DNA from: Escherichia coli
GTDB taxonomy: Bacteria > Pseudomonadota > Gammaproteobacteria > Enterobacterales > Enterobacteriaceae
Reading direction: 5' to 3' (one strand)
Length of the DNA: 1,551 nt
Assembly (NCBI RefSeq): GCF_003334335.1
Contig: NZ_QOWQ01000102.1
Below are positions 1 through 1,254 of the stretch, piece by piece. A model generated the notes under the pieces. That model was given only the letters and a program-made list of their open reading frames with translations. It had not been told where the DNA came from and made no database searches. Positions within the stretch are counted from its first letter, which is position 1. Every line of letters starts with the position of its first letter. The translations under genes and the position numbers were made by a program.

Positions 1-32
<32 letters not shown>

Positions 33-218
33 CCATTTTTACTGTAAAACCGTGGCCAATATTACTTGACCACTACAGCATTACCGAAACGGCTTTCATC
101 GCTGCAAGGTTTTTCTTTGCCGGAATGTATCCGGTCAGCTTATACCCTGCTGATAACCTGCGCCCTTAAACATGCGGGCTGCAGCCTGTTGAGCCTGCCT
201 GAAATGAGCTAGGATTAG

Positions 219-549: not shown

Positions 550-620
550 AACCCTTTAGCTCAGTGGTAAGAGGACTCATAATCGCTTGGTCGCTGGTTC
601 AAATCCAGTAAGGGCCACCA
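550..620 (+). pseudogene. Degenerate tRNA-Ile(CAU)-like remnant (tRNA-Ile2 / ileX-ileY family); not foldable into a full cloverleaf
   Basis: Seen in sequence: D-arm GCTC(559-562)/AGTGGTAA/GAG; anticodon loop CTCATAA (576-582, anticodon CAT); variable region TGGTC; T-arm GCTGG(593-597)/TTCAAAT/CCAGT(605-609); acceptor 3' strand AAGGGCC (610-616), discriminator A, encoded CCA (618-620). Defects: the acceptor 5' strand reads AACCCTT (550-556) where GGCCCTT is needed, and only GA lies between the D-stem and the anticodon loop, so the 3' anticodon-stem strand TCGCT (583-587) has no partner. From memory of the enterobacterial tRNA-Ile2 sequence this amounts to a deletion of about 5 nt plus a few substitutions. 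Confidence 0.6.
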
Positions 621-931: not shown

Positions 932-1126
932 GTGGTCTTCCTATTGATGAAAAAACAAGCAATTACTTGGCATATTATCTGTAACACTTTAAAACTGTTA
1001 AGAAGATCACAATTCATTATGTTTATTATTGTCTGGCCGGAGGGATATTTGTTAAAAAGTGCGCCGTGTGGTGAATCCCCCTGTGCGGTGGGGCGACTGG
1101 TGTACATAGCATTTATTATGTTATGA
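932..1126 (+). CDS. Hypothetical small protein (64 aa), unrecognised; likely spurious
   Basis: ORF from the supplied track with a GTG start at 932 and TGA stop at 1124-1126, about 90 nt upstream of the strong plus-strand terminator. It lies in an AT-rich tract and overlaps ORFs 649-984 (+) and 781-1107 (-). No convincing ribosome-binding site and no recognisable motif. Confidence 0.1.
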   Translation: MVFLLMKKQAITWHIICNTLKLLRRSQFIMFIIVWPEGYLLKSAPCGESPCAVGRLVYIAFIML

Positions 1127-1217
1127 GCGAAGCCTACGCGGGTTCAGTGACACCGACTGAATTCACCGGGAGGCACCCGGCACCATGCAACAGACGCAAG
1201 TTAGGCTAAGCCTTATA

Positions 1218-1246
1218 CCCCTGTAAGTTTTTTACAGGGGTTTTTT
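1218..1246 (+). terminator. Rho-independent terminator (perfect 9-bp stem, 5-nt loop, T6 tract)
   Basis: CCCCTGTAA (1218-1226) pairs perfectly with TTACAGGGG (1232-1240) around loop GTTTT, followed immediately by TTTTTT (1241-1246). Confidence 0.7.
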
Positions 1247-1254
1247 GTGCACAG

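Follow-up and report, generated by a model that had tools for sequence, protein, structure and literature searches.

We found that positions 1166-1246 of a 1,551-nucleotide stretch of Escherichia coli DNA (contig NZ_QOWQ01000102.1 of assembly GCF_003334335.1; the whole stretch is hereafter called the window) are the last 81 bases of STnc100, a catalogued prophage small RNA (sRNA), and hence an already known element. The initial annotation of the region had described a hairpin carrying a Shine-Dalgarno (SD)-like GGAGG and, after it, a 13-codon micro-ORF whose stop codon lies in a terminator stem. The best explanation, to which we assign a probability of about 87%, is that the region is the 3' module of an Hfq-dependent prophage sRNA of the STnc100 family and that the micro-ORF is non-functional. 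The family identity, the structure, the lack of conservation of the ORF and the genomic context were established in the present study. As a copy of an sRNA family that standard annotation pipelines label, the locus matters little in the form in which it was filed. Our side observations, if confirmed, would change the interpretation of abundant prophage RNAs, which would combine a conserved structured domain with a fast-evolving targeting tail.

Eight prophages of strain Sakai carry convergent pairs of sRNA genes at the moron site, on the downstream side of PR'; the pair adjoining stx2B consists of EcOnc27 and AsxR (Tree et al. 2014). EcOnc27 was recorded as an 80-nt Hfq-CRAC cluster on the + strand that ends 3 nt before the AsxR cluster (Tree et al. 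2014, Table S2). Its northern bands of about 235 and 247 nt, the longer of which is destabilised in an hfq mutant, were detected with a probe that is complementary to the tail and starts at the homologous ATG. EcOnc27 of Sakai is the same RNA as the Hfq-dependent sRNA103 of EDL933 and 86-24, the over-expression of which raises the espA and fimZ transcripts. One copy in EDL933, STnc100_4, is northern-positive, and the STnc100 promoters of Salmonella LT2 carry RpoD and RpoN ChIP-exo signal. In enteropathogenic E. coli (EPEC), PasD1 and PasD2 show Hfq-dependent stability and have RIL-seq partners; according to a 2026 preprint, they share structure, and probably ancestry, with STnc100. Two variants at +90 and +103 after stx2B, a single-nucleotide polymorphism and a 1-nt deletion, fall inside the STnc100 copy of phage Sp5 (L002 3990-4195); in machine learning on O157:H7 isolates, they ranked among the strongest predictors of haemolytic uraemic syndrome (PMC12711010). 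The family has some medical relevance in that its stx2-adjacent copy binds Hfq, affects espA and fimZ, and holds these predictors.

Collection of homologues

Homologues were gathered from viral contigs and from one genome per species with a hairpin-only probe (CACCGGGAGGCACCCGG), from which the ATG was excluded. The probe gave 272 instances; 171 carried the upstream core motif of the family, GAATCYCC, and 132 of those were unique, while the remaining instances include chance matches in high-GC actinobacteria. Copies were obtained from Escherichia, Citrobacter, Enterobacter, Salmonella, Pantoea, Erwinia, Cedecea, Rahnella, Kosakonia and other genera, and the distant copies that we tested were also classed as STnc100 by Rfam. 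Our own covariance model of the core, which scores 86.8 bits at 1064-1190 of the window, found 118 copies in the fetched loci.

Identification of the STnc100 locus

On the + strand, window 1036-1250 matched STnc100 (Rfam RF02076) in cmscan over the full length of the model (positions 1-206 of 206), with 138.5 bits and E = 4.7e-32; the gathering score of RF02076 is 47 bits. We take this interval as the STnc100-family sRNA gene. In addition to scoring above the gathering threshold, it contains a multi-branch core that is closed by 8 bp and includes the CCCC/GGGG and CCGGG-AGGCA-CCCGG hairpins, and it has an intrinsic terminator at its 3' end. One of the readings offered in the initial annotation, that of the 3' end of a small RNA, proved right: 1166-1246 is the 3' third of the full-length match, and its Sp5 homologue is the Hfq-crosslinked segment of EcOnc27.

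In the Sp5 phage record, STnc100 ends at 4195 and AsxR lies at 4197 (Rfam ends). Anchored on AsxR, the EcOnc27 cluster maps to about 4114-4195, from the P5 hairpin to the U-tail, which is the counterpart of window 1166-1246; this mapping is accurate to about +/-7 nt, since the RefSeq record has been re-versioned from the 2014 Sakai coordinates. AsxR was considered as a 3' part of the STnc100 locus and rejected, as it is a separate gene on the opposite strand that starts 2 nt after the STnc100 end.

Direct reading of the sequence placed CCGGG at 1166-1170, the loop AGGCA at 1171-1175 and CCCGG at 1176-1180, which together form the hairpin. The SD-like GGGAGG is at 1168-1173, partly in the stem, the ATG is at 1185-1187 and the TAA is at 1224-1226. 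The positions first given for the hairpin, the GGGAGG, the ATG and the stop codon were all correct.

Structure of the core

When folded in isolation, 1064-1250 reproduced the Rfam architecture, at -71.9 kcal/mol (z = -3.56); none of 200 shuffled sequences was equally stable. In the core alignment, which was itself fitted to our covariance model, 95.3% of the cells form standard pairs, compared with 41-49% when the partner columns are slid, and 20 of the 22 pairs vary on both sides.

The closing helix P1 is formed by GUGUGGUG (1066-1073) and CACCAUGC (1181-1188), and is found in the Rfam structure, in the minimum free energy (MFE) fold and by covariation. It has 8 bp, and pairs 3-8 are formed in 128-132 of the 132 unique copies. 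Switches between A-U and G-C and between U-A and C-G occur, and all 8 pairs vary on both sides. The annotated ATG is positions 5-7 of the 3' strand. Within P1, hairpin P2 (1078-1093) pairs CCCC (1078-1081) with GGGG (1090-1093) around the loop UGUGCGGU. Its sequence is near-invariant: its columns do not vary in alignment A1 and are 95.7% paired in alignment A2. Hairpin P4 (1140-1148 with 1156-1164) is 97.9% paired, all 5 of its modelled pairs vary on both sides, and it is also seen in the MFE fold.

The hairpin of the initial annotation is P5 (1166-1180), a consensus hairpin in Rfam and the last one in the multi-branch core. It is paired in 99.3% of the cells (114 distinct copies), and compensatory changes were observed at 3 of its 5 pairs: C-G to U-A in five copies, C-G to G-C in one, and G-C to A-U in one. 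Searching through the 5' motif alone also gave the variants CGGAG-aggca-CUCCG, UCGGG-aggca-CCCGA and CCGGG-aggcc-CCUGG. Because the variants compensate and the pairing reaches 99.3%, the stem is kept as a stem. Both the stem sequence and the AGGCA loop are almost invariant, which would point to sequence-specific recognition and not to a ribosome-binding site. The suspicion first raised, that the whole arrangement may be coincidental, therefore fits the micro-ORF, which is unconserved and at chance level (see below), and fails for the hairpin and the terminator, which are conserved in the family that the window matches at E = 4.7e-32.

A pseudoknot joins the segment after P2 to the loop of P4 (1149-1155), with UGGUGU (1098-1103) paired to ACACCG (1150-1155), and it covaries across the STnc100 family. 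Its register moves by 1-3 columns between lineages, so a count in fixed columns is unusable, and we assessed it by alignment-free tests of own against cross-lineage strands. The duplex energy was -5.0 kcal/mol for strands of the same copy and -2.1 kcal/mol for mismatched strands, and none of 5000 permutations was as low; a run of at least 6 bp was present in 78% of own pairs and in 29% of cross-lineage pairs (84 distinct duplex sequences). The pseudoknot is unmarked in the structure line of RF02076, and we found no mention of it in the publications consulted.

The core in other contexts

The division into a conserved core and a changing tail raises the possibility that the core is the functional unit, as a portable 5' RNA module placed before varied cargos. 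We hold this reading tentatively. It would make P5 a sequence-specific recognition element and the core a protein-binding, stabilising or processing signal, and it agrees with the invariance of P2 and P5 in sequence alongside the compensated variation of P1, P4 and the pseudoknot, as well as with the unrelated tails of different lineages. In addition, the core alone (model positions 31-147 in Rfam) was found directly before tRNA genes and before unrelated SD-led ORFs. These tail-less cores, which lie 5-9 nt before tRNA genes or ahead of SD-led ORFs (L013 684-804 and 1310-1425; L191 11068-11186; L010, L073, L137 and L227), suggest a portable 5' module; the ORFs, judged by eye, include TerB-like, porin-like and small membrane proteins. 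On the other hand, most copies (61 unique) just precede a terminator, as in an ordinary sRNA, and direct fusion to a tRNA, with the core 5 nt ahead of the gene, is rare (2-3 cases).

Stated in full, core 1066-1188 might be an autonomously folding, pseudoknotted module with its own promoter that has spread across prophages of many enterobacterial genera, a proposal that we find possible and no better than that. As part of the same joint proposal, its interchangeable cargos might be seed-plus-terminator tails, tRNA genes and moron protein genes. If true, the core would have a separate, undescribed function, for example specific protein binding, RNA stabilisation or a processing signal. This reading is compatible with the sRNA explanation and not opposed to it.

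Two narrower roles of the core were set aside. A role mainly as a tRNA leader was down-weighted, as a tRNA directly follows the core in 2 of about 112 unique hits and in L191. A riboswitch or antiterminator role was dropped, since no alternative pairing that involves the terminators appears to be conserved throughout the family and RNA ending at the terminator accumulates in vivo. In several loci (L130 6178-11404; L189 342-4216; L013 337-2066; L223 and L225), three to five copies of the STnc100 type also lie close together, within a few kb, interleaved with tRNA genes, isrI-like sRNAs and one IS element.

Tail, terminator and transcript ends

The rho-independent terminator is at 1217-1246 (+ strand), with a stem at 1217-1241 (11 pairs) and a U run at 1241-1246; in the terminator scan, the 5' arm is 1217-1227 and the loop 1228-1230, followed by the T run. 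The TAA does lie within the 5' arm, as had been annotated, and this hairpin is the only terminator-like site in the window. Among 117 distinct tails, 81 have a terminator-like hairpin within 130 nt, mostly 28-34 nt after P5. By analogy with the relatives, the terminator is expected to be both the 3' end of the sRNA and the site for the proximal face of Hfq.

Between P1 and the terminator lies the variable tail (1189-1216). The alignment of divergent copies from phages and E. coli genomes ends at window 1187-1190, and beyond it the sequences from P1 to the terminator fall into many unrelated classes, usually of 20-40 nt. The tail is the most likely candidate for the seed that would pair with trans targets. 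The triplets AAC AGA CGC AAG at 1190-1201, three of which conform to ARN, are a candidate site for the distal face of Hfq.

Upstream, a candidate promoter consists of TTGGCA (967-972), a 17-nt spacer and TAAAAC (990-995), and two leader blocks within 967-1063, TCACAATTCA (1006-1015) and ATTTGTTAAAAA (1047-1058), are conserved with phage Sp5. A consensus promoter scan of the window gave no promoter on the + strand. Transcription from 967-995 would start near 1002 and give an RNA of about 245 nt, which fits the EcOnc27 bands of about 235 and 247 nt. The length of 80-150 nt expected in the initial annotation is too short in view of those bands. We judged it less likely that transcription in E. 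coli begins at the closing helix, where TTTGTTAAAA would serve as an extended -10 element, since such a start does not fit the EcOnc27 bands. It does fit distant genera, in which promoters of the TTGAC type end 3-6 nt before P1; in the E. coli copies, a start about 60 nt upstream of the beginning of the closing helix is more likely.

Proposed mechanism and comparison with relatives

Expression, Hfq binding and regulatory effects are known from relatives only, and by analogy would extend to the window's copy. The gene would yield a trans-acting, Hfq-dependent sRNA, about 185-250 nt long and with its 3' end at 1244-1248. In related copies, its own sigma-70 promoter drives the RNA in the dormant phage. 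The RNA would fold into a compact 5' core (P1, P2, P4, P5 and the pseudoknot), followed by the short variable tail and the terminator, with P5 stacked on P1 and the annotated ATG held in the 3' strand of P1. Hfq would bind the segment from P5 to the U-tail, as was shown for the Sp5 homologue, and the tail would base-pair with targets in trans. In an intact phage, the terminator would also shield the lysis genes, which lie downstream, from the promoter of the sRNA. The lambda Q protein is an antiterminator that modifies RNA polymerase starting from PR' to read through terminators. By the same behaviour, Q-modified polymerase from the late promoter PR' would read through the sRNA terminator at induction.

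The window's copy resembles STnc100/EcOnc27/sRNA103 in the core helices, the leader blocks and the 3' module from hairpin to terminator, and apparently in its place relative to a phage tRNA. It differs from EcOnc27 in the sequences of the tail and the terminator; UUAGGC is the only tail element common to the window and the Stx2-phage classes. Furthermore, it is located in a decayed remnant with neither stx upstream nor lysis genes downstream, and its putative convergent neighbour is an STnc490-like element instead of AsxR. PasD1 and PasD2 are likewise prophage-encoded, near the Q antiterminator gene, and depend on Hfq; by the account of the preprint, they are too divergent in sequence for BLAST and have a different seed and different targets. 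AsxR and AgvB (EcOnc02 and EcOnc01) share the moron-site niche downstream of PR', bind Hfq and are convergent partners of STnc100-type genes. However, they are on the opposite strand, measure 51-60 nt, lack a structured core and are classed in different Rfam families; the Rfam scan of the window gave no match to either.

Genomic context and decay of the locus

The window matches E. coli chromosomes, in which the locus lies in a decayed island; the neighbouring genes, a DUF3927 fragment and a hypothetical gene with a frameshift, are pseudogenes. In intact Stx2 phages, Q, three tRNAs, stx2A, stx2B, STnc100, yjhS/nanS-p, the holin gene and the endolysin gene follow on one strand. A degraded phage-type tRNA with a CAU anticodon is present at window 550-617 (or 550-620) on the + strand, with 30.7 bits in the Rfam tRNA model, although ARAGORN called no tRNA in the window. 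Set against the first tRNA of Sp5, it is missing 5 nt in the anticodon stem, its 5' end reads AA where the Sp5 tRNA has GG, and its acceptor end is damaged. This degraded tRNA, upstream of the sRNA and on the same strand, matches the layout of Sp5 and suggests that the window is what remains of the late region of a lambdoid prophage; Q and the lysis genes are absent from the window and its flanks.

The end of an IS150 element (IS3 family), annotated on the opposite strand in homologous genomes, is found at 1501-1551, and IS150 truncates the original sequence 3' of the sRNA locus. The initial annotation had stated that nothing lies downstream for the element to regulate. This holds for the decayed locus, in which IS150 lies near 1501, but not for intact phages, in which nanS-p/yjhS, holin and endolysin genes follow on the same strand; nothing lies downstream here because the prophage has decayed. 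At the other end, window 1-77 is uncovered in the 15 best-matching E. coli genomes listed, the alignments of which begin at 78, and this suggests that base 78 is the boundary of a rearrangement or an insertion.

An STnc490 match (Rfam) was also observed at 1257-1343 on the + strand, with 62.4 bits against a threshold of 56 and its start 6 nt beyond the STnc100 terminator. The first hairpin of the match (CCCCCAGCUAGGCUGGGGG, 1256-1280) is palindromic, and it is on the minus strand alone that a U run (UUUUCU) comes after it. The hairpin looks like the terminator of a convergent transcript on the minus strand, and the true strand of the element is uncertain. In other prophages, this position is that of AsxR/AgvB.

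Prophage decay may have left an inert relic, that is, a family member that is no longer expressed or used. We consider this unlikely, somewhat more so than the portable core. It agrees with the neighbouring pseudogenes, the abutting IS150, the upstream tRNA that is degraded beyond detection by ARAGORN, and the consensus scan that gave no promoter on the + strand. Against it, every helix is intact, as are the pseudoknot and the terminator, the copy retains the leader blocks that it shares with the expressed copy of Sp5, and the variant occurs at 99.5-100% identity in about 387 complete genomes, although this may reflect recent common descent and not selection. The 3' module of an Hfq-dependent sRNA remains our preferred reading of the locus, although this copy, given its place in a decayed island, may be silent.

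The micro-ORF

The micro-ORF (1185-1226, + strand) reads ATG CAA CAG ACG CAA GTT AGG CTA AGC CTT ATA CCC CTG TAA, corresponding to MQQTQVRLSLIPL. The initial annotation had proposed to examine the conservation and covariation of both the hairpin and the micro-ORF; the hairpin is conserved and covaries, and the micro-ORF is unconserved among the 117 distinct tails. An ATG is present at the position of 1185 in 47 of these tails and is absent in 70, which have ACA, GCA, ACG and other triplets in its place together with compensated variants of the P1 helix. The three bases of the ATG belong to P1 pairs 4, 3 and 2, and each switches with its partner: pair 4 is U-A in 107 copies, C-G in 16 and A-U in 4; pair 3 is A-U in 67, G-C in 52, G-U in 8 and C-G in 4; and pair 2 is C-G in 63 and U-A in 30.

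Where the ATG is present, the frames that it opens range from 8 to more than 42 codons, and the peptides fall into unrelated classes (MQWHIAPLSS..., MLCHKSV..., MQYTEIRHI..., MCMMIQIRG..., MQEKECACK...). In 40 of the 47 tails with an ATG, there is no stop codon before the end of the terminator (it comes after the terminator in 28, and is not found within 130 nt in 12), and therefore the terminated transcript has no stop codon at all. The 13-codon form occurs only in the window's variant. The window has 3 pairs of an SD-like motif and an ATG where shuffles give 4.9 +/- 2.8, which is no enrichment, and 46% of random frames reach a stop within 13 codons. Since the bases of the ATG covary, the ATG is often absent, the frames are unrelated and the frequency is that of chance, the micro-ORF is a by-product of the P1 helix sequence in one sub-lineage. 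We judge the frame coincidental, probably with no functional translated product.

An RNA that both base-pairs and encodes a 13-residue peptide, as with SgrS/SgrT or RyhB/RyhP, is very improbable here. In its favour are the Ribo-seq data of EDL933, in which the eleven STnc100 copies have ribosome coverage from 0 to 3.2, with footprints on several of them. These footprints are assigned to no frame, and the coverage differs about 80-fold among near-identical copies; ribosomes may contact some STnc100 copies. The peptide, in contrast, is private to one tail variant, with none common to the family, and the homologous frame of the Stx2 copy in EDL933 and Sakai has 31 codons and runs through the terminator. 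The start codon and the SD-like motif are, moreover, sequestered.

The weakest reading is the leader-peptide or attenuator-like element suggested in the initial annotation, in which ribosomes on the 13-codon frame would reach the 5' arm of the terminator and control read-through into downstream genes; it appears to be largely refuted by the absence of conservation, and we give it next to no credence. The geometry is present, in that the GGAGG precedes the ATG by 11 nt and the stop falls in the 5' arm, and intact phages do have genes downstream on the same strand. However, both the GGAGG (in the P5 stem-loop) and the AUG (in P1) are paired in the consensus structure as well as in the MFE fold, and the three bases of the ATG, which most tails lack, covary with their P1 partners, while the frames differ in length and sequence and mostly have no stop before the terminator. 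The locus has neither a conserved short ORF nor an accessible ribosome-binding site and start codon, nor regulated genes downstream in the same transcription unit. In phages, the terminator is followed by a convergent sRNA gene and not by a regulated ORF; here, it is followed by no regulated genes, and only by non-coding sequence with the STnc490-like element and by IS150. The trp, his and pheA attenuators are similar in that a short frame precedes an intrinsic terminator and its stop codon lies close to the terminator stem or within it. They differ from the window, in which the frame is unconserved and without regulatory codons, its start and SD-like motif are locked in helices, and no operon is under control.

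Finally, CCCCUGU occurs at both 1078-1084 (5' strand and loop of P2) and 1218-1224 (5' arm of the terminator), and either copy could pair with ACAGGGG at 1234-1240. A likeness between the terminator (GCCCCUCUCCGGAGGGGC) and P2 (CCCCCUGUGCGGAGGGGC) is also seen in many copies from E. coli phages. This likeness may be due to chance, alternative pairing or duplication.
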